64,000 bases of DNA, from the NCBI GenBank assembly GCA_963707435.1, contig CAVPPF010000007.1, forward strand, positions 356,900 to 420,899, given 5' to 3'. This stretch comes from an uncultured Actinomycetota bacterium. GTDB lineage: Bacteria; Actinomycetota; Acidimicrobiia; Spongiisociales; UBA4744. Every line of letters starts with the position of its first letter. Position 1 is the first letter of the stretch. The position numbers and the translations under genes are program-made. This document shows, piece after piece, positions 40,587 through 52,567 of the stretch. Under the pieces are notes generated by a model, which was not told where the DNA came from, searched no databases, and was given only the letters and a program-made list of their open reading frames with translations.

Positions 40587-41395
40587 TGGCCGGCGACGTC
40601 GAACAGCATTGGGATCTGGTCCTGTTCGGTGATCCCGTCGACCACTCGTTGTCACCGGTGATCCAGCAGGCGGCTCTCGACGCGATCGGATTGGCGGGCA
40701 CCTACCGGGCCGTCCGCGTGGACGAGGCAGGCTTTCGACGCGGGTGCGCGGAGCTCCGGGAAGGGCGATGGCGCGGCGCCAACGTCACGATGCCCCACAA
40801 ACGGCTCGCCTGTGCCGAGGTGGACGCTCGAACCGATGAAGCAGGTCGCGCCGGGTCGGTCAACACCATTGTTGTCGACGGCGCGCGGTTGATCGGGCAC
40901 AGCACCGATATCGAAGGCATCCGCACAACCTGGGACGAAGCCGAACTTCCGGACCATGCTCCGGTGCTGGTGCTGGGCGCAGGCGGCGCAGCGGCGGCCG
41001 CCGTGATCGCCGCAGGCTCAACCGATGTGTTCCTCGCGGCCCGCCGCCTCGAGCTTGCCGCCGCTCTCGCTCGGGACGTGGACGTTGCCGTTCGCCCACT
41101 GCCGTGGGGAACGGCGGTTGCCGGAGCCGTCGTCGTCAACGCCACGCCGCTCGGCATGTCCGGCGAATCACTGCCACCCGGCATTGTGGAACAAGCCGCC
41201 GGATTGCTCGACATGGCATACGGACGCTCCACCACGCCTGCAGTGCAGACCGCCCGCAGCCGCGGAATTCCCCACGCGACCGGAACCGATCTCTTAGTGG
41301 CCCAGGCGGCGGCTTCGTTCACGCTCTGGACCGGCCGGGCAGCGCCGGTGGCGGCGATGCGGGCTGCGCTCCAAAAGGCTCAAGCGACAGGCTAG
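40586..41395 (+). CDS. aroE: shikimate dehydrogenase
   Basis: LFGDPVDHSLSPVIQQAAL (the AroE SxS motif), ..ANVTMPHK.., ..VLVLGAGGAAAAAV.. (Rossmann). Start at MAGDVE overlapping the mltG stop. The upstream ORF-track extension lies inside mltG and is rejected. Confidence 0.8.
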   Translation: MAGDVEQHWDLVLFGDPVDHSLSPVIQQAALDAIGLAGTYRAVRVDEAGFRRGCAELREGRWRGANVTMPHKRLACAEVDARTDEAGRAGSVNTIVVDGARLIGHSTDIEGIRTTWDEAELPDHAPVLVLGAGGAAAAAVIAAGSTDVFLAARRLELAAALARDVDVAVRPLPWGTAVAGAVVVNATPLGMSGESLPPGIVEQAAGLLDMAYGRSTTPAVQTARSRGIPHATGTDLLVAQAAASFTLWTGRAAPVAAMRAALQKAQATG

Positions 41396-41436
41396 GAGCG
41401 CCGAAACTCCCTGAGAGTCGGTACGGAGGAGTCTTC

Positions 41437-42342
41437 ATGTCGCTAACCGGTGCCCTCGAGGCATTTCCGCTTCCCGAGGTACTTCGCCTCCTGGCGCGGT
41501 CGGAAAAGAGCGGGACGCTGAGAATTGACGCATCCGACCTGCAAGGTCGGATCTACCTCACAGATGGTTCGCTCAGCTACGCGACGACCCGCCGCGAGGA
41601 GGATCTGGTCGATGATCTTGTCGGAGCGGGTTTGATCGACTCCCAGGACTGGGTGCTGGTCGAGCGCCGCGAGAAGGACGTCGTCGAAGTTCTGGCCGCA
41701 GACGCCACCGAGCAGCAACTGACCGACCTCCTGGCCGACCAGATCGCCGATGTCATCTTTCGATTGATGCGCCGCAGCGACGGCGACTTCGAATTCTCGG
41801 AGTCCGTCGGCCCGCGCTACAACACGGGGATCAGCGTTGACATCGACGCCTCGATAGCCGAGGCGGAGAAACGAAACGCGCAGTGGTCGGAGATCGAGGA
41901 CGTGATCCCGGCGATCACGTTCCATCTGCGCATGGTTCCCGATCTCAACGACCGCAACGAGGTCTCCGTTCCGTCGACTACCTGGAGGGTGCTCGCCGCC
42001 CTGCAGGGTGAGGGAAGCATCGAAGAGGTAGCACGACGACTGGGAATGACCGACTTCGCCGTCGCGCAGATCATGGCCGGACTTGCCCGGGACGGTCTGC
42101 TCGAAATCGTCGATATGCCGCCACCCGCCGCCTACGGGTACGGTGACGTGCCCCAGGAACCACAGCAAGCCCCGGCGCCGCAACCGGAAGCTCCCGTCGA
42201 GGACGACCAGGATGACGAAATCCTTCTCGAATCGGCGTTGTCCGATGTCGTGGCACCCGAAGAGGATCCTGACGCTCCGGTGATCGCCCGCAGACGTGGC
42301 CTCGGCGCCCGTGTCCAGGAAGCTAAGGACGCCGGTGAGTAA
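41437..42342 (+). CDS. PATAN/DUF4388-domain protein with acidic Pro-rich C-terminal tail
   Basis: Start MSLTGAL after GGAGG. ..GALEAFPLPEVLRLLARSEKSGTLRIDASDLQGRIYLTDGSLSYATT fits the DUF4388/PATAN pattern. A winged-helix-like segment (..EEVARRLGMTDFAVAQIMAGLARDGLL) follows. Tail is PPPAAYGYGDVPQEPQQAPAPQPEAPVEDDQDDEILLESALSDVVAPEEDPDAP. Lies immediately upstream of pilB. Confidence 0.6.
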   Translation: MSLTGALEAFPLPEVLRLLARSEKSGTLRIDASDLQGRIYLTDGSLSYATTRREEDLVDDLVGAGLIDSQDWVLVERREKDVVEVLAADATEQQLTDLLADQIADVIFRLMRRSDGDFEFSESVGPRYNTGISVDIDASIAEAEKRNAQWSEIEDVIPAITFHLRMVPDLNDRNEVSVPSTTWRVLAALQGEGSIEEVARRLGMTDFAVAQIMAGLARDGLLEIVDMPPPAAYGYGDVPQEPQQAPAPQPEAPVEDDQDDEILLESALSDVVAPEEDPDAPVIARRRGLGARVQEAKDAGE

Positions 42343-42349
42343 TCGAGCC

Positions 42350-44032
42350 ATGGTCCAGCGGGATGCGGGACATCTCGGGACGCTCCTCCTCGAGGAGGGC
42401 ATCGTCACCGAGGAGACCCTCAAGAAGGGCCTCGATCTCCACCATGAGACCGGCCGTCCACTCGGACGCGTCCTCGTGGAAGAGAACCTGGTCGAAGAAC
42501 GCGACCTCGTCCGGGTACTCGCCAAGAACATCGGGATCGAATTCGTCGACCTGGACGAGGGTGCCGTCGACCCGGCCGCCGCAGCCCTGATCCCCGAAGC
42601 TCTGGCCAGGCGCTACGCCGCACTGCCCATCGGTTTTGAGGACGAGAAGCTCGTGATTGCGATGGCCGACCCGGCCAATGTGCTGGCGATCGACGACATC
42701 CGGGCGATCTCCGGGCGTGAGGTGATCCTCAAGGTAGCCACCCGCTCGGATGTGGAGGCTGCGGTATCCCGTCTTGCCTCGCTCGACAACTCTGTGACCG
42801 ATATGGCCGAGCTCGCCGCCGAGGACTCGGTTGAGGCGCATGATCTCAGCGCCGTTGAAGCGGCGGCGGATGAGGCGCCGGTCGTCAAGCTGGTCAACAT
42901 GCTGATTACCAGGGCAGCCGCCGACCGTGCTTCGGACATCCACATCGAACCAACCGAACGAGACCTCAGAGTCCGATTCCGGATCGACGGTGTACTCCAC
43001 GAGATCATGCGGACTCCCCGTTCGATCTCAAATGCGCTCGTCAGCCGGCTCAAGATCATGGCCGACATCGACATCGCCGAGCGGCGCCGTCCTCAGGACG
43101 GACGCATCAACCTGAAGGTCGGTGGCAAACAGCTCGACCTCCGCGTGTCGAGCCTGCCCACCATCTACGGCGAGAAAGTCGTAATGCGGCTGCTCGATAC
43201 CGGTACGGCACTGCTCGAGCTCAAGGATCTCGGATTCCTCGGTGAAAACGAGCGGCGCTACCAGGAATCGTTCAGCAAGCCGTACGGGACCATCCTGTGC
43301 GTCGGGCCGACCGGTTCCGGCAAGTCGACCACGCTCTATGCAACGCTCAACGTCCTCAACCGGCCGGAAGTGAACATCGTGACGATCGAGGACCCGGTCG
43401 AGTACCGGCTGCCGGGAATCAGCCAGGTCCAGGTGAACAAGAAGGCCGGCCTCAACTTCGCATCGGCCTTGCGCTCGTTCCTGCGCCAGGACCCGGACAT
43501 CATGCTGGTTGGTGAGATCCGTGACCAGGAGACGGCGAACATCGCCATTGAATCGGCGCTGACCGGCCACCTGGTTCTTTCCACGCTCCACACCAACAAT
43601 GCTCCCGCCAGTGTCAGCCGCTTGATCGAGATGGGGGTCGAACCGTTCCTGGTGGGCTCCGCCCTCGACGCAGTCTTGGCGCAGCGCCTCGCCCGACGGT
43701 TGTGCAGTCACTGCAAAGAGGAATACACCCCAACGGCGGAGGCGCTTCGGGAAGCCAACTTCCCCATGGAGGATCGCGATGAAGCGCCCAAGCTGCACCG
43801 GGCCGTTGGCTGCAAACACTGCGCAAATACCGGCTACCGGGGCCGGCTGGCAGTCCATGAGTTGATGACCGTGAACGAGGAGATCGAGTTGCTGACCGTT
43901 GAGCGAGCCGCCACCGAGAACCTGACGCGGGCGGCTATCGCCAACGGAATGCGGACCCTCAGACAGGACGGCATGGACAAGGTTGCCATGGGGCTCACCT
44001 CCATCGAGGAGATCATGCGGGTGATCATCTAG
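42350..44032 (+). CDS. pilB: type IV pilus assembly ATPase
   Basis: Two N-terminal GspE_N/MshEN-like repeats (..LGTLLLEEGIVTEETLKKGL.., ..PLGRVLVEENLVEERDLVRVL..), a T2SSE_N domain, Walker A VGPTGSGKSTT, Asp/His boxes and the tetracysteine CSHC...CKHC. Confidence 0.88.
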   Translation: MVQRDAGHLGTLLLEEGIVTEETLKKGLDLHHETGRPLGRVLVEENLVEERDLVRVLAKNIGIEFVDLDEGAVDPAAAALIPEALARRYAALPIGFEDEKLVIAMADPANVLAIDDIRAISGREVILKVATRSDVEAAVSRLASLDNSVTDMAELAAEDSVEAHDLSAVEAAADEAPVVKLVNMLITRAAADRASDIHIEPTERDLRVRFRIDGVLHEIMRTPRSISNALVSRLKIMADIDIAERRRPQDGRINLKVGGKQLDLRVSSLPTIYGEKVVMRLLDTGTALLELKDLGFLGENERRYQESFSKPYGTILCVGPTGSGKSTTLYATLNVLNRPEVNIVTIEDPVEYRLPGISQVQVNKKAGLNFASALRSFLRQDPDIMLVGEIRDQETANIAIESALTGHLVLSTLHTNNAPASVSRLIEMGVEPFLVGSALDAVLAQRLARRLCSHCKEEYTPTAEALREANFPMEDRDEAPKLHRAVGCKHCANTGYRGRLAVHELMTVNEEIELLTVERAATENLTRAAIANGMRTLRQDGMDKVAMGLTSIEEIMRVII

Positions 44033-44138
44033 CGGAGCGGCCGGGACCGGGCGGGCCGCGGAAACCTTCAAGCCGGAGCGATCCGGTGCCGAAACTCAAG
44101 TGAGGCAGATCGCCTCGAAGGGAAACTGGAAGAGAGCA

Positions 44139-45704
44139 ATGAACACAGCATCACGCAGACTCGGTGAGCTCCTGGTTGATCGCAGGTTGCTGTCCAAGGA
44201 CAGCCTGGAAGGCCTCCTGGAGAAGGAAACCGCGACCGGCGTTCCCATTGCCAAGCTCCTCATCGATGGCGGGCACGTCCGCGAGGAAGACTTGCTCCGA
44301 GCCGTTGCCGACCGGGTCGGCATGCTGTACATAGATCTCGACGATGCGCTGCTCGATCCGGAAGCCGTCGGCATGATCGACGCCGACGCCGCCAGGCAGC
44401 TCATGGTCATACCCGTCCGCACGGAAGACGAGAAGGTCGTCGTCGCCGTAGCGGATCCCTTCGACCCGGAGACCCACGTGCGTCTCGAGAAGACGCTCGG
44501 AGTAGGTGTCACCCTCGCCCTGGCCACCCGGGCGGCTATCGGCAGAGCCATCGATTTCGTCCACGGTGCCGAACAGGTTCCGCTCGTCCGCCAACCCGGA
44601 ATGCCGGCGCAGGAGGGGACGATCAGCGAACCCGAGACCTTGCATCTCAACGAACTCCTCGGCATTCAGCTCGATCGCGGCGGATCCGACCTGCACCTCA
44701 CCGCCGGCTCCCACCCGCAGATCCGGGTGCACGGAAAACTAGAACGACTGAGCGACTTTCCGATCATGAAACCGGCCGAGTTGCGCCGCATGATCTACAG
44801 CATTCTCACCGAGAAACAGCGGGAGAAGCTCGAAGAAACCCTGGAACTCGACGCTTCCCATCCGGTGCCCGGACGTGGCCGTTTTCGCATGAACGTGTAC
44901 TTTCAGCGCGATTCGATCGGCGCCGCCTTTCGAGCCATTCCGACCGACATCATGTCGCTCCAGCAGCTGGGGATCCCACCGTCGGTCGGTGAGCTGGCCG
45001 ATTTGCAGCGCGGCCTGGTGCTGGTCACCGGTCCTACCGGGTCCGGCAAGTCGACGACCCTGGCGGCTCTCATCGACATGGTGAACAGCAAGCGTTCGTG
45101 CCACATCCTGACCGTCGAGGATCCAATCGAGTTCCTCCACGTGCACAAGCAGGCAATCGTCAACCAACGCGAGGTTGGGGCGGACACGCTCGGCTTCGGC
45201 CCCGCCTTGAAACACGCCCTACGGCAGGACCCCGACGTGATCCTGGTAGGTGAGTTGCGGGACCTCGAGACCATCTCGACCGCTCTGACGGCTGCAGAGA
45301 CCGGTCACCTCGTGTTCGCAACGTTGCACACGCAGGATGCACCGCAGACGATCGACCGGATTGTCGACGTATTTCCTTCACACCAGCAGCAACAGGTGCG
45401 GGTCCAGCTCGCCTCGACCATCCAGGCCATCATGACGCAGCAACTCGTGCCGCTGCGGACCGGCAAGGGTCGGGTCCCGGCAGTCGAGGTGATGGTTGCC
45501 ACGTCTGGGATCCGGAACCTCATCCGGGAATCAAAGAACCATCAGATCACCACAGCGATGCAAGCCGGTGGCAAACACGGCATGCAGACCATGGATCAGG
45601 CTCTGGCAGACCTGGTTCGCCGCAATCTCATCTCGTACGCGGTAGCCGTGGAACGCTGCATGAACCTGGAGGATTTCCAAAGGCTCGCGGGCCGGATGGC
45701 ATAG
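44139..45704 (+). CDS. pilT: PilT-type twitching/retraction ATPase with about 150 aa N-terminal GspE_N-like extension
   Basis: Core: TGPTGSGKSTTLAAL, GIRNLIRESK (PilT AIRNLIRE motif), ..PSHQQQQVRVQLASTIQAIMTQQL... N-terminus: RRLGELLVDRRLLSKDSLEGLLEKE (MshEN-like) then ..LLRAVADRVGMLYIDLDDALLDPEAVGMIDADAARQLMVIPVRTEDEKVVVAVADPFDPE.. (T2SSE_N-like). Start at MNTASRRLGEL after GAAGAGAG; 13 codons upstream are rejected. Confidence 0.82.
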   Translation: MNTASRRLGELLVDRRLLSKDSLEGLLEKETATGVPIAKLLIDGGHVREEDLLRAVADRVGMLYIDLDDALLDPEAVGMIDADAARQLMVIPVRTEDEKVVVAVADPFDPETHVRLEKTLGVGVTLALATRAAIGRAIDFVHGAEQVPLVRQPGMPAQEGTISEPETLHLNELLGIQLDRGGSDLHLTAGSHPQIRVHGKLERLSDFPIMKPAELRRMIYSILTEKQREKLEETLELDASHPVPGRGRFRMNVYFQRDSIGAAFRAIPTDIMSLQQLGIPPSVGELADLQRGLVLVTGPTGSGKSTTLAALIDMVNSKRSCHILTVEDPIEFLHVHKQAIVNQREVGADTLGFGPALKHALRQDPDVILVGELRDLETISTALTAAETGHLVFATLHTQDAPQTIDRIVDVFPSHQQQQVRVQLASTIQAIMTQQLVPLRTGKGRVPAVEVMVATSGIRNLIRESKNHQITTAMQAGGKHGMQTMDQALADLVRRNLISYAVAVERCMNLEDFQRLAGRMA

Positions 45705-45717
45705 GAGGACCGGACAC

Positions 45718-46941
45718 ATGGCGACATCAACGTTCACCTACAAGGTCAAGGACAAGACGGGCAAGCTGCACGACGGCGAGATGCAGGCTTCGTCCCAGTC
45801 GGCCGTGGCCAAGGCGCTGCGTGAGCGCGGGTTTGTGCCGGTTGCGGTGGAGGAGAAGAAGGCTTCGACGCTCCAGATGGAGATCAAGATCCCCGGTCTG
45901 TCCGGTCGGGTGAAGGTCAAGGAGGTCTCGGTCTTCAGCCGCCAGTTCGCCACCATGATCAACTCGGGCCTCTCGCTGCTGCGTTCCCTGACCATCCTGG
46001 CCGAACAGACGCCGAACCGTGCTTTCCGAGACATCATTCTCGAGGTCAAATCCGACGTGGAGAAGGGGTCGTCGCTTTCCCAGGCTCTGGAGAAGCACCC
46101 GAAAGTATTCCCCAGGCTCTATTCCTCCATGGTGAAGTCGGGTGAGGTTGGTGGTGTTCTGGACGAGACGCTCGAGCGATTGGCGCTGACGCTCGAGGCG
46201 CAGGTCGAACTCCGGTCTCAGGTCAAGTCGGCCATGATGTACCCGGCTGCGGTTTTCGGGTTGGTCATCTTCATCGTCATCGCCATGCTGCTGTTCGTCG
46301 TGCCGATGTTCGAATCGATGTTTGCCGACTTCGGAGCGGAACTTCCGCTCCCGACCCGGATGCTCATGTCGCTTTCGGTAATCTTCACTACGTACTGGTA
46401 CGTTGCCATTGGTGGCACGGTCGCGGCGATCTACGGCTTCAAGCGGTGGATCGCCACCGATCGCGGTCGCAGCAGGTTCGACGCCATCAAGCTGAAAATG
46501 CCCATTTTCGGCAAACTGGTCCACAAAACTGCGCTGGCCCGTTTCTCGCATACCCTGGCCGCCCTGACCCGGACCGGTGTTCCCATTCTGATGGCGATGG
46601 ATATCGTGGCCGAAACCTCCGGCAATGCCGTGGTTGCCCGGGCCGTGCACAGCGTGCAGGCCTCGGTGAAAGAGGGAGAGTCGATCGCCGAACCGCTCTC
46701 GAACCATCCTGTGTTCCCGCCGATGGTCGTGCAGATGATGGCCGTCGGGGAGGAGACGGGCGCGCTCGACACGATGTTGGAGAAGGTCGGCGATTTCTTC
46801 GACCGGGAGGTCAAGACGATGGTCGAAGGTCTTACCAGCCTCATCGAGCCTCTCCTGGTCGTGATCCTGGGTGCCACCGTCGGCGGCATGCTGCTGGCGC
46901 TCTACCTGCCCATCTTCAACGTCATCACGCTGATCGACTAA
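45718..46941 (+). CDS. pilC: type IV pilus platform protein (GspF family)
   Basis: Duplicated T2SSF domains (..SRQFATMINSGLSLLRSLTIL.., ..LARFSHTLAALTRTGVPILMAMD..) and three TM blocks. AGGAGG RBS. Confidence 0.88.
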   Translation: MATSTFTYKVKDKTGKLHDGEMQASSQSAVAKALRERGFVPVAVEEKKASTLQMEIKIPGLSGRVKVKEVSVFSRQFATMINSGLSLLRSLTILAEQTPNRAFRDIILEVKSDVEKGSSLSQALEKHPKVFPRLYSSMVKSGEVGGVLDETLERLALTLEAQVELRSQVKSAMMYPAAVFGLVIFIVIAMLLFVVPMFESMFADFGAELPLPTRMLMSLSVIFTTYWYVAIGGTVAAIYGFKRWIATDRGRSRFDAIKLKMPIFGKLVHKTALARFSHTLAALTRTGVPILMAMDIVAETSGNAVVARAVHSVQASVKEGESIAEPLSNHPVFPPMVVQMMAVGEETGALDTMLEKVGDFFDREVKTMVEGLTSLIEPLLVVILGATVGGMLLALYLPIFNVITLID

Positions 46942-47079: not shown

Positions 47080-47532
47080 ATGATTCGTTGGATCAACAGC
47101 CGACTCGGAAACGAGGAAGGCTTTACGTTGGTCGAGTTGATGGTGGTCGTATTGATCATTGCCATTCTTGTGGCGATCGCCATCCCGACCTTCCTCGGTG
47201 CTCGTACCAGTGCCCAGGACCGGGCCGCTCAGAGCGACCTGCGCAACGCCCTGACCGCCGAGAAGGTGTTCTACGTGGACAACGAGGCGTACAGCGACAA
47301 CGGCGCAGGCGAGCTGGCTGCCATCGAGCCGAGCATCGACTGGGCCGCCGTCACCGTGACCCTGAACGCCCTGGACGACCAGGATGTCTGCTTGGAGCTG
47401 ACGTCGGCCAGCGGCACCGTGTTCGTACTCAAGGACATTGCGTCCGGCGCCAACGGTGGTGCCCCGGGTACCTATTACGGCACCGTCAACTGCGCTGGCG
47501 CAGTAGCGACCACAGCGGACGCCGGCTGGTAA
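47080..47532 (+). CDS. pilA: type IVa major pilin
   Basis: MIRWINSRLGNEEG|FTLVELMVVVLIIAILVAIAIPTFLGAR is a textbook class III leader plus N-methyl-Phe/Glu5 helix. C-terminal Cys pair (..DVCLELTS..GTVNCAG..). AAAGGAGGAATCTC RBS. Confidence 0.87.
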   Translation: MIRWINSRLGNEEGFTLVELMVVVLIIAILVAIAIPTFLGARTSAQDRAAQSDLRNALTAEKVFYVDNEAYSDNGAGELAAIEPSIDWAAVTVTLNALDDQDVCLELTSASGTVFVLKDIASGANGGAPGTYYGTVNCAGAVATTADAGW

Positions 47533-47640: not shown

Positions 47641-48411
47641 ATGACCGCATACTTCGCCACGGTGGCCGGCCTGTTCGGGCTGCTCATCGGTTCTTTCTTG
47701 AACGTGGTCGCGTACCGGGTGCCGCTCGGTCGATCTGTCGTGTCGCCTCCCTCGGCGTGCCCGGCGTGTGGGCGCCCGATCCGCCCGCGTGACAACATCC
47801 CGGTGCTGTCCTGGCTACTGCTGCGCGGGAAGTGTCGCCAGTGCGGTGCTGCGATCTCGCCCCGCTATCCGATCGTCGAGGCCGCAACGGGGATCCTGTT
47901 CGCCGGAACCTATCTGGTGATCGGTGCCGTATGGGTTCTGCCCGCCTACCTGCTCTTCGTGGGAACAACCGTGGCGCTCATCCTGACGGACCTCGACCAC
48001 AAGCGGATCCCGAATCGCATTCTGTACCCGGCCACCGTGGCCGCCGTGTTCCTGCTGGCCCTCGGAGCCGCCGCCGATGGGAGGCTGGACGCAGTGCCGC
48101 GCGCCCTGGCGGGTGGTGCGATCTACTTTGGAATACTCCTCCTGATAGCCCTGGCCGCCCGCGGTGGGTTTGGCATGGGTGATGTCAAGCTGGCCTTCCT
48201 GCTCGGGACGTTCCTGGCTTTCGACTCCTGGGCGACCCTGTGGGCCGGGGTCTTCCTGGCCTTTCTCATCGGCGGCGGGGTGTCGCTGCTGCTCCTGGTC
48301 ACGAGACGGAAGGGCCGGAAGGATGCCATCCCGTTCGGTCCTCCACTCATGGTCGGGGCGTGGATCGCGGTGGTTTGGGGCCGGCAACTCGTCGATTGGT
48401 ATATGGGATAG
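47641..48411 (+). CDS. pilD: prepilin peptidase (A24 family)
   Basis: Zinc-finger N-terminus CPACGRPIRPRDNIPVLSWLLLRGKCRQCG, and catalytic Asp regions (..LILTDLDHKRIPN.., ..GMGDVKLAFLLG..). GGAGAGGAG RBS. Confidence 0.88.
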   Translation: MTAYFATVAGLFGLLIGSFLNVVAYRVPLGRSVVSPPSACPACGRPIRPRDNIPVLSWLLLRGKCRQCGAAISPRYPIVEAATGILFAGTYLVIGAVWVLPAYLLFVGTTVALILTDLDHKRIPNRILYPATVAAVFLLALGAAADGRLDAVPRALAGGAIYFGILLLIALAARGGFGMGDVKLAFLLGTFLAFDSWATLWAGVFLAFLIGGGVSLLLLVTRRKGRKDAIPFGPPLMVGAWIAVVWGRQLVDWYMG

Positions 48412-48570: not shown

Positions 48571-49641
48571 ATGGCGATCAACGTCGGGTTGGACATAGGC
48601 ACGAGCGCTGTTCGTGCGGCTGTTGTACAGACGGGCAAAGGGGTGCCCGTCTTACAGCGTTATGGGCAGGTGGCGCTCCCCGAAGGCGCCGTCGTCGCCG
48701 GCGAGATCGTGGAGGAAGCGATCGTCCGTGACGCCCTCATCCAACTCTGGAAAACCGCCAAGTTGCCGAAGAAGCGAGTCGTTGTCGGCATTGCCAATCA
48801 ACGAGTGATCGTACGGAGAGTCGATCTGCCCTACATGGCCGAGGACGAGCTCGCTCAGGCGCTCCCGTTCCAAGCCCAGGAGTTCATCCCGATACCGATC
48901 GACGAAGCGATTCTCGACTTTGTCCCGCTCGAAGAGTTCGCAACTCCCAACGGTGAGCCGATGCTTTCGGTCCTCGTGGTCGCCGCGCACAAAGACATGG
49001 CGGCCGATGTCCTGCGGGTCGTCGGAGATGCCGGGGTCAAGGTCATGGCCATCGATCTGCAGGCTTTCGCCCTGTCTCGTTCCGTCCTCGGCGCCGATTT
49101 CGATCTCGACTCGGGGGTTCAGGCGATCGTCAATATCGGCGCGGGCCTGACCCAGGTGATCCTCTTGAAGGCCGGGACCATCAGATTCCTCAGGATCCTG
49201 ACCATGGGAGGGGCCACGTTCACCGAGGCCCTGGCGGACCGTATGCCGATGGAACCGGAGCAGGCAGAGCAATACAAGCGCCGGACCGGCGTGGCCATCG
49301 ACGGTGTTCCTACGGGGACAGAAGGCGAGGGTCTTGCCAAAGTCGTGCTGACCGAAGAGGCCGATCTCCTCATCGAAGAGATCCGCGGCTCGGTGGACTA
49401 CTACCTGGGCCAATCGGGCAGCGACACCCTCGAGCGACTGTACGTGGCAGGCAACGGGGCCCGGCTCCCCAATCTTGCCAACCGTCTGGGTCGCGCGCTC
49501 GGCGTTGGTGTGGAACCAGTTCGGGTTCTCGACGATGAGAAGATGCAGGTCGGCAAACTCGGGTTGAGTGATGTCGAGCTGGCCCAGGCTCAGCCGGTCC
49601 TTCCGGTGCCGGTCGGGCTGGCGATGTGGGGCGAACTGTGA
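48571..49641 (+). CDS. pilM: type IV pilus assembly protein (actin-like ATPase fold)
   Basis: VGLDIGTSAVRAAVV..., ..VAGNGARLPNLANRL.. are the PilM/FtsA-like fold. Confidence 0.85.
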   Translation: MAINVGLDIGTSAVRAAVVQTGKGVPVLQRYGQVALPEGAVVAGEIVEEAIVRDALIQLWKTAKLPKKRVVVGIANQRVIVRRVDLPYMAEDELAQALPFQAQEFIPIPIDEAILDFVPLEEFATPNGEPMLSVLVVAAHKDMAADVLRVVGDAGVKVMAIDLQAFALSRSVLGADFDLDSGVQAIVNIGAGLTQVILLKAGTIRFLRILTMGGATFTEALADRMPMEPEQAEQYKRRTGVAIDGVPTGTEGEGLAKVVLTEEADLLIEEIRGSVDYYLGQSGSDTLERLYVAGNGARLPNLANRLGRALGVGVEPVRVLDDEKMQVGKLGLSDVELAQAQPVLPVPVGLAMWGEL

Positions 49642-50261: not shown

Positions 50262-50869
50262 AGCGCACCGGTTTGATCATGGGCCTGCTGGGCCTGGGGC
50301 TGGTCACGGCCCTCTGGTACTTTTTTGTGATCTCCCCGACGAACACGAAGATCGCCGATGCGCAAGATCAGCTTGCAGCCGCGGAGGACAACCAGGTGCT
50401 GCTGCAAACCCAGCTCATGCGCCTCAAGAAGATTCAGGAGAACGAGCTTACCTACCGGTCGGCGATCGGTGCGCTCGAGGCCGCGATCCCGCCCACGCCG
50501 CAGATGCCTGCATTGATCGACGACCTGGCTCAACTGGCGGTCGACTCGGGCGTTGAATGGGAGAGCGGCACGTACGGGAACCCGGTTGAGGTGGAAGGGG
50601 AGGATTACTACGAGATTCCGGTCAACCTCTCCGTGCAGGGCCAGTTCTTCGAAGTGCTCGGGTACTTGTACGGGATCGCCGATATGGAACGGATCGTCCG
50701 CATCGACGCAGTGAGTCTCTCTCCCACGGAAGACGATGCCGGTTTCACGATCGAGAACGTTTCGATTTCCGCAGTCACCTTCACGACCGGCGATGTCGTG
50801 CTGCCGGTGCCCGAAGAACCCGCCGAGACCACGACCACGACCACGACGACCCCCGGGGACGGTGAGTGA
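50258..50869 (+). CDS. pilO: type IV pilus assembly protein
   Basis: MKRTGLIMGLLGLGLVTALWYFFV, coiled coil (..AQDQLAAAEDNQVLLQTQLMRLKK..), ferredoxin-like C-domain and a poly-Thr tail ETTTTTTTTPGDGE. ATGA overlap with pilN. Confidence 0.7.
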   Translation: MKRTGLIMGLLGLGLVTALWYFFVISPTNTKIADAQDQLAAAEDNQVLLQTQLMRLKKIQENELTYRSAIGALEAAIPPTPQMPALIDDLAQLAVDSGVEWESGTYGNPVEVEGEDYYEIPVNLSVQGQFFEVLGYLYGIADMERIVRIDAVSLSPTEDDAGFTIENVSISAVTFTTGDVVLPVPEEPAETTTTTTTTPGDGE

Positions 50870-51375
50870 TGCGAGCGAAGAACAGCGGCACCGCCGCGGC
50901 GGTAGCCATTCTCCTGATCGGCCTGGCGGTAGCCGGCGCCTGGATGGTTGTTGCTCCTTCCGTGTTCGGTTCGAACGACACGGTGTTGGACGGTCCGCTC
51001 GCCGAGTCGACCTTGGCGGCACCGGCCGGATCCGAGCTGATCGAGGGTGTGAAAGTGCTGAGCTCTTTCCAGGTATCACAGCCTCGTGACCCGTTTCGGC
51101 CGCTGATCACCGAAGACTCGACGACGGGAACCACCGGCGACGGAACCGGCACCGGTTTTGATCCGTCCGGGATCCGGGTGACCCTCGTCGAGATCAGGGA
51201 CGTTGCCGGTGTCCTGCGAGCCACCGTCAAGGTCGACGGCACCGACTACGACGTCGGCGTGGGTGATACCTTCGCGAGCAACTTCAAAGTGGTCAGTCTC
51301 GATCCCGACAGTGGCGTCTTCCTCTACGGCGACAACGCGTTCGAGCTGTCCGAAGGCCAGGAGATTCTGAAGTAG
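50866..51375 (+). CDS. PilP-like pilus assembly protein (N-terminal TM anchor, RDPF motif)
   Basis: AAVAILLIGLAVAGAWMVV anchor, then ..SQPRDPFRPLIT.. (the RDPF motif I associate with PilP) and a beta-rich C-domain. GTGA overlap with pilO. Confidence 0.5.
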   Translation: MMRAKNSGTAAAVAILLIGLAVAGAWMVVAPSVFGSNDTVLDGPLAESTLAAPAGSELIEGVKVLSSFQVSQPRDPFRPLITEDSTTGTTGDGTGTGFDPSGIRVTLVEIRDVAGVLRATVKVDGTDYDVGVGDTFASNFKVVSLDPDSGVFLYGDNAFELSEGQEILK

Positions 51376-51415: not shown

Positions 51416-52567
51416 ATGTTGCGTTTCCTCACAGCCGGCGAGTCGCACGGCCCCGGCCTGGTCACCATCGTCGAAGGCCTCCCGGCCGGACTCGATATCA
51501 CCGTTGAAGGGCTGGCCGATCAGCTGCGGAGGCGCCGTTTGGGGTTCGGTCGCGGCCGCCGCATGAAGATCGAGCAAGATGAGTTGGAGATTCTCGGCGG
51601 CGTTCGCCACGGGCGCACCCTGGGGAGCCCCCTGGCGGTTGTGATTCGCAACAGCGAGTGGGCGAAGTGGACCGAGGAGATGTCGCCGGGGGCGGGCCAC
51701 CCGAAGCGCCGGATGACGACACCTCGCCCGGGCCACGCGGATCTGGCCGGGATGCTCAAGTACGACACGTACGACGCTCGTGACATCCTGGAGCGGGCAT
51801 CTGCCCGGGAAACGGCCGCCAGAACCGTTGCCGGGTACGCGGCCCGGCAACTGCTCGCTCAGGTTGACATTTCGGTGCTGAGCCATGTCGTTGCCATCGG
51901 ACCTCTGACCGTGGCCGCCGGGACCACTCCCGGTCCCGACGACCTCGACATCATCGATGCGTCGCCGGTGCGAGTCTTCGATCGGGACATCGAAGACGCC
52001 ATGACATCGGCCATCGAGCAGGCCAAAGCCGACCGGGACACACTCGGCGGGGTGGTCGAAGTCCTGGCCTTTGGAGTACCGCCCGGCCTCGGCAGCCACG
52101 TCCACTGGGACCGGCGTCTCGATACCCGGCTCGCCGGTGCGCTCATGTCGATCCAGGGCATCAAGGCCGTCGAGATGGGTGACGGTTTTGCCTCGGCCTC
52201 CCGGCCGGGTTCGGAAGCCCACGATGAGATCGGTTTTGTCGACGGTCGATTCGTTCGGTCTTCGGATCGGGCGGGTGGCCTGGAGGGTGGAATCTCCACC
52301 GGACAGACGCTGCGGATGCGGGCCGCCATGAAGCCCATCTCAACGCTCATGCGGCCGCTGCAGAGCGTCAACGTCGAGAACAAGGAACCTGCCGCTGCCT
52401 TTCGGGAGCGTTCAGATGTATGTGCGGTCCCGGCCGCCGGTGTGGTGGCCGAGCAGATGGCGGCCTACATCCTGGCGGATGAGGTGGTGCGCACGTTCGG
52501 TGGGAACACGGTCGAGGATCTGGTCGCAGCCACCGACGCCTATCGAAGACGCCTGCTGGAATTCTGA
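51416..52567 (+). CDS. aroC: chorismate synthase
   Basis: MLRFLTAGESHGPGLVTIVEGLPAGL...GRSSARETAARV. Confidence 0.92.
   Translation: MLRFLTAGESHGPGLVTIVEGLPAGLDITVEGLADQLRRRRLGFGRGRRMKIEQDELEILGGVRHGRTLGSPLAVVIRNSEWAKWTEEMSPGAGHPKRRMTTPRPGHADLAGMLKYDTYDARDILERASARETAARTVAGYAARQLLAQVDISVLSHVVAIGPLTVAAGTTPGPDDLDIIDASPVRVFDRDIEDAMTSAIEQAKADRDTLGGVVEVLAFGVPPGLGSHVHWDRRLDTRLAGALMSIQGIKAVEMGDGFASASRPGSEAHDEIGFVDGRFVRSSDRAGGLEGGISTGQTLRMRAAMKPISTLMRPLQSVNVENKEPAAAFRERSDVCAVPAAGVVAEQMAAYILADEVVRTFGGNTVEDLVAATDAYRRRLLEF

Follow-up and report, generated by a model that had tools for sequence, protein, structure and literature searches.

Whether a domain regarded as the mark of pilus extension motors can also serve a retraction motor, and what it would do there, is the question raised by a gene in a 64-kb stretch of contig CAVPPF010000007.1 (assembly GCA_963707435.1) from an uncultured Actinomycetota bacterium of the class Acidimicrobiia, a stretch that we call the window. 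The gene lies in a type IVa pilus (T4aP) cluster and encodes a 521-amino-acid (aa) PilT-type ATPase, here called the long PilT, which carries an additional N-terminal domain of the N1D/GSPII/MshEN kind. Reviews use the presence of N1D to separate extension from retraction ATPases (PMC11656802), PilT and PilU are said to be without it (PMC4624772, PMC11656802), and PilT has been argued not to be regulated by cyclic diguanosine monophosphate (c-di-GMP) since the domain is absent (PMC4624772). The founding survey of MshEN listed many partner domains, PilT not among them (PMC5013675), and full-text literature searches, including searches on Acidimicrobiia pili, returned no description of a PilT with an MshEN, T2SSE_N or GSPII domain. 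Our analysis confirmed that the window's protein is an in-frame fusion of such a domain to a complete PilT-clade ATPase and not an artefact.

Architecture of the long PilT

The plus-strand open reading frame (ORF) extends over 44100-45704 in the ORF list, and its ATG at 44139 gives the 521-aa protein. A purine-rich, Shine-Dalgarno-like stretch, GGAAGAGAG, precedes this ATG, and the start methionine is common to 89 of 121 homologues in the family alignment. An internal start at Met155, yielding an ordinary short PilT, was rejected because Met155 is not conserved in that alignment. The region flagged by a first-pass annotation of the DNA, 44139-44600, corresponds to residues 1-154, that is, to the additional domain. 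The parts of the gene are as follows.

44139-45704, plus strand: long pilT, comprising MshEN/N1D domain, linker and PilT core (ORF, Pfam, NCBIfam, homologues, AlphaFold2)
44139-44318, plus strand: four-helix bundle equivalent to MshEN_N, residues 1-60 (helices 3-14, 20-33, 37-43 and 49-60)
44157-44228, plus strand: degenerate MshEN motif I, RLGELLVDRRLLSKDSLEGLLEKE, residues 7-30 (family alignment)
44244-44315, plus strand: degenerate MshEN motif II, PIAKLLIDGGHVREEDLLRAVADR, residues 36-59 (family alignment)
44319-44564, plus strand: alpha/beta subdomain resembling MshEN_C, T2SSE_N and GspE N1E, residues 61-142 (PF05157, Foldseek)
44577-44633, plus strand: disordered linker, residues 147-165 (model confidence below 50)
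44646-45701, plus strand: PilT-type ATPase core, N2D plus C-terminal domain, residues 170-521 (TIGR01420, PDB matches, motifs)

The core scored 469.8 bits against the PilT family model TIGR01420 of NCBIfam (cutoff 319.1), residues 170-508 covering model positions 2-339 of 343, and the C-terminal half of the protein matched PF00437 in Pfam. The NCBIfam models for PilB (TIGR02538, 189.5 bits) and GspE (TIGR02533, 146.5 bits) did not reach their cutoffs of 675.65 and 630.25 bits on the same protein. Among PDB sequences, the PilTs of Geobacter, Aquifex, Pseudomonas and Thermus scored 328-404 bits with the core, the top match being G. metallireducens PilT (6OJX, 404 bits, residues 169-514), while PilU (9N32) reached 278 bits and PilB ~144 bits; these scores put the core nearer to PilT than to PilU, as judged from sequence.

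Residues 170-517 align end to end with the PilT entries 3JVV, 6OJX and 2EWV (367-404 bits). As in known PilTs, there are Walker A (GPTGSGKST, residues 298-306) and Walker B motifs (DVILVGELRD, 366-375, with the catalytic Glu), an Asp box (VEDPIE, 326-331) and a His box (HLVFATLHT, 390-398), all of them either invariant across the long-PilT family or kept in at least 90% of it. An AIRNLIRE-type motif is likewise shared: GIRNLIRE at residues 457-464 of the window's protein stands where the family consensus reads AIRNLIRE, the C-terminal motif of PilT that was reportedly described by Aukema et al. in 2005. The zinc tetracysteine motif, which known PilTs lack as well, was not found in the long PilT, whose only cysteines are Cys321 and Cys507 with no CxxC. 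The gene is also placed as in known PilTs, in a T4aP cluster beside pilB and pilC. Known PilTs, however, have ~345-390 aa and start at the PAS-like N2D, whereas the window's PilT has 169 more N-terminal residues (MshEN/N1D plus tether). We predict that the protein is a catalytically complete retraction ATPase of the PilT clade.

Within the N-terminal extension, residues 61-139 matched PF05157 (MshEN, formerly T2SSE_N) in Pfam with 60.5 bits against a gathering cutoff of 23.1. A full-length AlphaFold2 model built with 96 homologues had a mean predicted local distance difference test (pLDDT) score of 86; in it, the N-domain (residues 1-142, pLDDT ~90) forms four helices and then an alpha/beta subdomain, residues 147-165 fall below 50, and the PilT core comes next. 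Modelled by itself, the N-domain reached a pLDDT of 90.6. Its best Foldseek match was Vibrio cholerae MshEN with c-di-GMP (5HTL; E=1.7e-11, template modelling (TM) scores 0.78/0.81, root-mean-square deviation 2.4 Å over 135 columns). Thermus PilF GSPII-A ranked second, PilF GSPII-B, the Xanthomonas citri PilB-N:PilZ complex (7LKO) and XpsE-N were further matches, and sequence searches concurred; the N1E domains of EpsE/GspE (2BH1, 4PHT) matched weakly and in the alpha/beta subdomain only. The likeness to the MshE/PilB N-domain thus predicted spans the four-helix bundle and alpha/beta subdomain, the two 24-residue motifs with their 5-residue spacer and PF05157, but the domain here sits on a PilT core and not on a PilB/GspE core.

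The N-domain is 33% identical to that of the PilB encoded by the adjacent gene (131 aa, E=2e-21). Because this identity is just 33%, it is a paralogue of the PilB domain and not a recent copy, and a recent duplication of the neighbouring domain is ruled out by the same figure. Against PilB N-domains of Acidimicrobiia it scored mostly 55-77 bits (two at ~49), against those of other phyla 23-59 bits and against PDB examples 42-50 bits, so that it is modestly closer to the former.

These results bear out most of what the first-pass annotation had read from the letters of the DNA: a 521-aa protein whose first ~150 residues are extra, an N-terminal MshEN/T2SSE_N module like that of the adjacent PilB, and a core of PilT and not PilB/GspE descent. 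The profile match to T2SSE_N was significant, and the strings quoted in support are all present, RLGELLVDRRLLSKDSLEGLLEKE at residues 7-30, VAVADPFD at 102-109 (inside the alpha/beta subdomain), HQQQQ at 415-419 and GIRNLIRESK at 457-466.

Recurrence of the fusion and selection on its N-domain

All 120 of the closest protein clusters combine PF05157 with PF00437 in proteins of 464-551 aa, at 95% to 56% identity, and the named ones are labelled 'PilT/PilU family type 4a pilus ATPase' or 'twitching motility protein PilT' and come from metagenome-assembled genomes (MAGs) of Acidimicrobiia/Acidimicrobiales. A locus scan, with the N-domain pattern as query and one genome per GTDB species, gave 39 loci in MAGs of Acidimicrobiia/Actinomycetota or in MAGs labelled just as uncultured bacteria. 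The N-domain reads directly into the PilT core in 39/39 of these species-level loci, and the order ruvX-mltG-(aroE)-PATAN-pilB-pilT-pilC-pilin(s)-pilD-pilM-pilN is kept across them; the closest relatives are Microflora Danica MAGs. The exact protein of the window is absent from the contig index. Seven weaker matches of the scan, from Planctomycetota and Hydrogenedentota, were ordinary PilBs and not long PilTs. In several closely related MAG loci (L002, L004, L025 and L034), genes of the cluster, pilB, pilT, mltG and pilM among them, are split over different frames, most likely through assembly indel errors and not as pseudogenes.

An MshEN-like N-domain preceded the PilT core in 18 of the best 150 representatives found by HMMER among 1.84 billion cluster representatives. 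A profile made from these 18 long PilTs listed 115 new proteins, 113 of which share the architecture and, where named, belong to Actinomycetota. The MshEN-PilT arrangement occurs in >230 protein clusters altogether, and this recurrence, with that in 39 species-level genomes, rules out a fusion or assembly artefact. A crude neighbour-joining tree built from the cores places the long PilTs of Actinomycetota in a single clade and disperses a few further representatives with an N-domain among short PilTs. For the divergent long PilTs, a look-up of their clusters returned no names.

Selection on the gene was assessed against five close relatives. The ratio of non-synonymous to synonymous substitution rates (dN/dS) was 0.04-0.11 in the N-domain, 0.013-0.035 in the core and 0.12-0.63 in the linker, which is gapped and varies in length among homologues. 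Purifying selection therefore clearly acts on the N-domain, though less strictly than on the motor. Conservation within the N-domain is concentrated in the four-helix bundle: of the 19 positions shared by at least 90% of the family, 15 fall there.

Two rival readings can be weighed on this evidence. That the protein is a second extension motor, or a bifunctional one, that merely resembles PilT would fit the presence of N1D, a hallmark of extension ATPases in reviews (PMC11656802), and PilT can promote extension of the MSHA pilus in V. cholerae (PMC9815625). We consider it highly improbable, given the 470 bits for TIGR01420 against 189.5 for the PilB model with its cutoff of 675.65, top PDB matches that are all PilT, an AIRNLIRE-type motif without the zinc tetracysteine, and a bona fide PilB encoded next door. 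Nor do we see more than a very slight chance that the N-domain is a functionless relic, either an ancestral PilB-like N1D still retained or a neutral capture: its c-di-GMP motifs are degenerate and it evolves faster than the core, but its dN/dS values, its in-frame retention in every one of the 39 genomes and in >230 clusters, its confidently predicted fold and the family-specific residues conserved at the former ligand site all speak against decay.

Other N-terminal elaborations of PilT turned up in these searches. A profile search with two further N-domain-bearing representatives, P0221 and P0197, returned chiefly tandem PilT-PilT fusions. Such fusions are numerous, with ~710-770 aa, up to 1024 aa, and two complete cores (P0121, P0122, P0125-P0127, P0130; P0396-P0513), and where named they belong to Myxococcota (e.g. 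Chondromyces crocatus), Oligoflexia, Kiritimatiellota and Lentisphaeria. A further 54 PilT representatives have other N-terminal extensions of 93-747 aa, mostly with no Pfam domain and many Pro-rich-looking or possibly with miscalled starts; a few bear PilZ, cNMP_binding, PATAN or HEAT repeats, so that other sensor-PilT fusions exist.

The MshEN ligand site

In MshEN the c-di-GMP site is built from two motifs of 24 residues each, RLGxx(L/V/I)(L/V/I)xxG(L/V/I)(L/V/I)xxxxLxxxLxxQ, with a spacer of 5; the position-3 Gly and the residue after it contact guanine through backbone amides, and the terminal Gln contacts phosphate and ribose (PMC5013675; PMC11731258). The long PilT keeps the two-motif spacing exactly (residues 7-30 and 36-59, 5 apart), and 18 of the 22 checked positions lie within the relaxed published motif. 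The four outside it distinguish the protein from c-di-GMP-binding MshEN domains: motif I has Arg at position 10, where G/A/S are allowed, and Glu at position 24, where Q/N/K/R/Y/W/S/T are allowed; motif II has Ala at position 3, where Gly is required, and His at position 11, where a hydrophobic residue is expected. Compared with the consensus, motif II also has Arg1 replaced by Pro and Gln24 by Arg. The two changes in motif I, Gly to Arg and Gln to Glu, had been recognised in the first-pass annotation, which took the region for a near-consensus MshEN motif; that description holds for motif I with its deviations and misses the departures in motif II (Pro for Arg1, Ala for Gly3, His11 and Arg for Gln24).

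The replacements are themselves conserved. Of the 120 closest homologues, 86 have Arg, 22 His and 7 Lys at position 10 of motif I (115 with one of the three), and 103 have Glu at its position 24; at position 3 of motif II, 93 have Ala, 10 have Ser and 1 has Gly. In the broader Actinomycetota set, Trp occupies motif II position 3 in 57 of 113 proteins, and Glu motif I position 24 in 89. Gly at both position-3 sites together with permitted terminal residues was found in ~9 of 233 long PilTs. The NCBIfam c-di-GMP motif model NF053729 gave 35.7 bits on the long PilT, just under its cutoff of 38, vs 54.1 bits on the adjacent PilB, and the PilB N-domains at related loci have Gly at motif I position 10 in 33 of 38 cases and at motif II position 3 in 26 of 38.

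Published experiments bear on several of these positions. Changing the terminal Gln to Glu lowered the affinity of PilF GSPII-B 77-158-fold, and the double mutant did not bind (PMC11731258); with the position-3 Gly mutants G11L and G40I of MshEN, ligand-induced stabilisation was not detected (PMC5013675). The one GSPII domain of Thermus PilF that does not bind c-di-GMP is GSPII-A (PMC11731258), whose motif II (9G1W) reads S-L-A...R where the long PilT has P-I-A...R, the two sharing the position-3 Ala and the position-24 Arg. GSPII-A differs in belonging to an extension ATPase with three GSPII domains and in its nearly canonical motif I, whereas motif I of the long PilT deviates too. Proteins with GGDEF, EAL or HD-GYP domains were not found in the 64-kb window, where the EAL and HD-GYP patterns gave just loose hits attributable to chance; this result says little about the whole genome.

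Because contact positions are replaced, the changes are conserved, the PilF experiments show what such changes do and NF053729 stays below its cutoff, canonical c-di-GMP binding by the window's PilT is unlikely; it keeps some weight because the position-3 substitutions studied by experiment are to residues other than Ala and the bundle is highly conserved. The N-domain would then no longer be a c-di-GMP receptor, or would never have been one, and the second-messenger control of retraction suggested by the first-pass annotation finds no support for this protein; control by a partner, which the annotation also offered, is the better reading.

A protein elsewhere presents a different picture. P0221 (L049, 8001-9569) has a near-canonical MshEN pair, KLGEMLVKYRVITQEQLEQALHQQ / RLGRNLLKLNFITEEVFIKFLAGQ, and is an orphan gene outside pil clusters in the MAG of a diderm, on a contig that carries outer-membrane efflux genes (OEP). 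For a retraction motor gated by c-di-GMP, P0221 is a stronger candidate than the PilT of the window.

The pil cluster and a possible docking role

The genes around the long pilT form a compact cluster on one strand, PATAN-pilB-pilT-pilC-pilA-pilD-pilM-pilN-pilO followed by a 169-aa ORF, and supply the candidate partners of the N-domain.

41434-42342, plus strand: PATAN (DUF4388) protein with helix-turn-helix (HTH) region (PF14332 70.9 bits; MarR_2 23 bits, below cutoff)
42350-44032, plus strand: pilB, extension ATPase of 560 aa that carries an MshEN domain itself (TIGR02538 643.9, PF05157 77, NF053729 54.1 bits, cutoff 38)
45718-46941, plus strand: pilC platform protein (PF00482 T2SSF in two stretches, 223.9 bits)
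47080-47532, plus strand: type IV pilin, pilA (PF07963 N_methyl, 29.8 bits)
47641-48411, plus strand: pilD prepilin peptidase (PF06750, PF01478)
48571-49641, plus strand: pilM actin-like stator/coupling protein, candidate docking partner of N1D (PF11104 PilM_2, 152.9 bits; role PMC11656802, PMC6325625)
49626-50869, plus strand: pilN and pilO alignment proteins, overlapping ORFs (PF05137 PilN 38.6 bits; PF04350 PilO 64.5 bits)
50866-51375, plus strand: 169-aa ORF right after pilO (no Pfam match)

The PilB of the cluster has the zinc-motif cysteines (CSHC and CKHC). Its ORF opens at a GTG at 42296, overlapping the end of the PATAN gene; the true start is likely the ATG at 42350, which yields the 560 aa also seen in contig L048 (95% related) and places the MshEN motif of PilB at residues 8-60. 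No second PilT-like core was found by tblastn within the window, the stretch that this search covered. The 106-bp spacer between pilB and pilT was considered as a regulatory RNA or terminator and rejected (fold z-score -0.64, no plus-strand terminator); terminator-like sites on the plus strand are absent between the pil genes, the sole plus-strand match lying inside pilT. The 169-aa ORF after pilO, which has a counterpart of 168 aa, also without a Pfam match, at the equivalent position in L048, is perhaps a pilus component not yet characterised, such as a PilP-like protein. The cluster is flanked by aroE upstream (40600-41395) and aroC downstream (51416-52567), with aroK and aroB after aroC in L048. 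These shikimate flanks recall the pilMNOPQ-aroK-aroB linkage of Proteobacteria.

A PATAN/HTH protein is encoded directly upstream of pilB in most related Acidimicrobiia loci. PATAN domains regulate pilus motors in cyanobacteria. In the distant relative L047 (5421-8146) the PATAN gene is joined by genes for a Roadblock/LC7 protein and a GPN-type GTPase (PF03029), reminiscent of polarity modules of the MglB/MglA type.

From the homology of the two N-domains we infer, with an even chance of being right, that the N-domain of the long PilT is a ligand-independent docking or coupling module like that of PilB, targeting PilT to the PilM/PilC platform or to a regulator. On its flexible tether of 20-25 residues, N1D would dock the retraction hexamer at the cytoplasmic face of the machine, with the PilM stator, the upstream-encoded PATAN regulator or possibly PilC as its partner. 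Because both motors carry homologous N1D domains, PilB and PilT hexamers might compete for one docking site, and the differences between their paralogous N1Ds, PilB's being nearer to the ligand-binding consensus, might set which motor is engaged and hence the balance of extension and retraction. By analogy with structures of GspE-N1E:GspL, N1D is believed to contact the PilM stator (PMC11656802), and Thermus PilF binds PilMNO through PilM, its GSPII-C being needed for the stimulation of ATP hydrolysis by PilMN (PMC6325625). Homologous N-domains dock the actin-like GspL, the equivalent of PilM, in EpsE-EpsL (2BH1, 4PHT) or a regulator in PilB-N:PilZ (7LKO), and the PilZ-binding domain of X. citri PilB, from a genus in which PilZ-FimX docks there, is among the strong Foldseek matches of the N-domain studied here. 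We also count for docking the presence of pilM, pilC and PATAN genes in the same cluster and the higher scores against Acidimicrobiia PilB N-domains than against other PilBs. The structural precedents, however, belong to secretion and extension ATPases; no retraction ATPase is known with such a dock, and the likeness here is one of sequence and fold.

Several points weigh against docking. The step to PilM, PilC or PATAN is one of homology, and in Thermus PilF no GSPII domain is indispensable for PilMN binding, the domains being needed just for its stimulating effect (PMC6325625). Conservation of the N-domain peaks in the four-helix bundle, the ligand-binding subdomain of MshE, as would fit retained binding of a small ligand; the published position-3 substitutions are to Ile and Leu, whereas the residue in the long PilT is Ala; PilF GSPII-B tolerates a deviation at motif position 1 (PMC11731258); and a minority of long PilTs is near-canonical (P0101, P0320, P0331 and others, ~9/233, plus P0158, P0197 and P0221). 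The conserved bundle, the tolerance at position 1 and the near-canonical minority also favour a working receptor, for c-di-GMP, 3'3'-cyclic GMP-AMP (cGAMP) or another nucleotide, whose ligand would gate retraction, as do the MshEN homology, with its 18 kept positions and exact spacing, the narrow miss of the NF053729 cutoff (35.7 vs 38), and the findings that MshEN also binds cGAMP and that PilF GSPII-B does not need an Arg at that first position for binding (PMC5013675, PMC11731258). We nevertheless think such a receptor unlikely, as the family-conserved deviations strike the phosphate/ribose contact (motif I, position 24), the guanine backbone contact (motif II, position 3) and the turn Gly (motif I, position 10), Gln to Glu is the very mutation chosen experimentally to weaken binding, and the closest look-alike of motif II, PilF GSPII-A, is a non-binder (PMC11731258); the lack of GGDEF, EAL and HD-GYP proteins in the window points the same way, weakly as regards the whole genome. 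Contacts of N1D with N1D, between PilT and PilB or within the PilT hexamer as autoinhibition or a stacked ring like that of PilF, could instead couple motor switching. The adjacent genes both encode an N1D, the PilT domain is somewhat closer to Acidimicrobiia PilB domains, the tether would permit such contacts, and the N1D ring seen by cryo-electron microscopy in PilF moves with nucleotide state, as summarised in PMC11656802 citing PMC6145873. This seems rather improbable: no system offers evidence of contacts between the N1Ds of different ATPases, PilB and PilT are believed to alternate at one site, and their N-domains are just 33% identical.

Whichever role it has, the window's PilT does not follow the two-domain rule of reviews, having PF05157 and an MshEN fold, although that rule is not part of the TIGR01420 definition. 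A PilT that keeps N1D under purifying selection in an actinobacterial lineage, and in scattered others, breaks the extension-only rule for this domain. The architecture has stayed hidden in databases because its Pfam string 'MshEN + T2SSE' is identical to that of PilB; long PilTs are labelled there just 'PilT/PilU family ATPase', the extra domain going unremarked, and an 'MshEN + T2SSE' annotation cannot be equated with 'PilB'. For pilus specialists this is a moderate surprise and a handle on N1D function, not a new type of machine. It touches two open questions, how PilB and PilT motors are switched and what the poorly resolved N1D/GSPII/MshEN domain of PilB does, and it lets two paralogous N1Ds be compared naturally within the same machine, PilB's being near the ligand-binding consensus and PilT's having a rebuilt ligand site. 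It is conceivable, though doubtful, that long PilTs make up a hitherto unrecognised class of retraction motors under regulation, with N1D acting as a nucleotide-messenger receptor or as a general handle for docking to the stator, the receptor form being most plausible for the near-canonical minority. If the handle were the true form, the extension and retraction motors of Acidimicrobiia would vie for a single dock by means of their paralogous N1Ds, a natural setting in which to test directly what N1D does and how the motors are exchanged.

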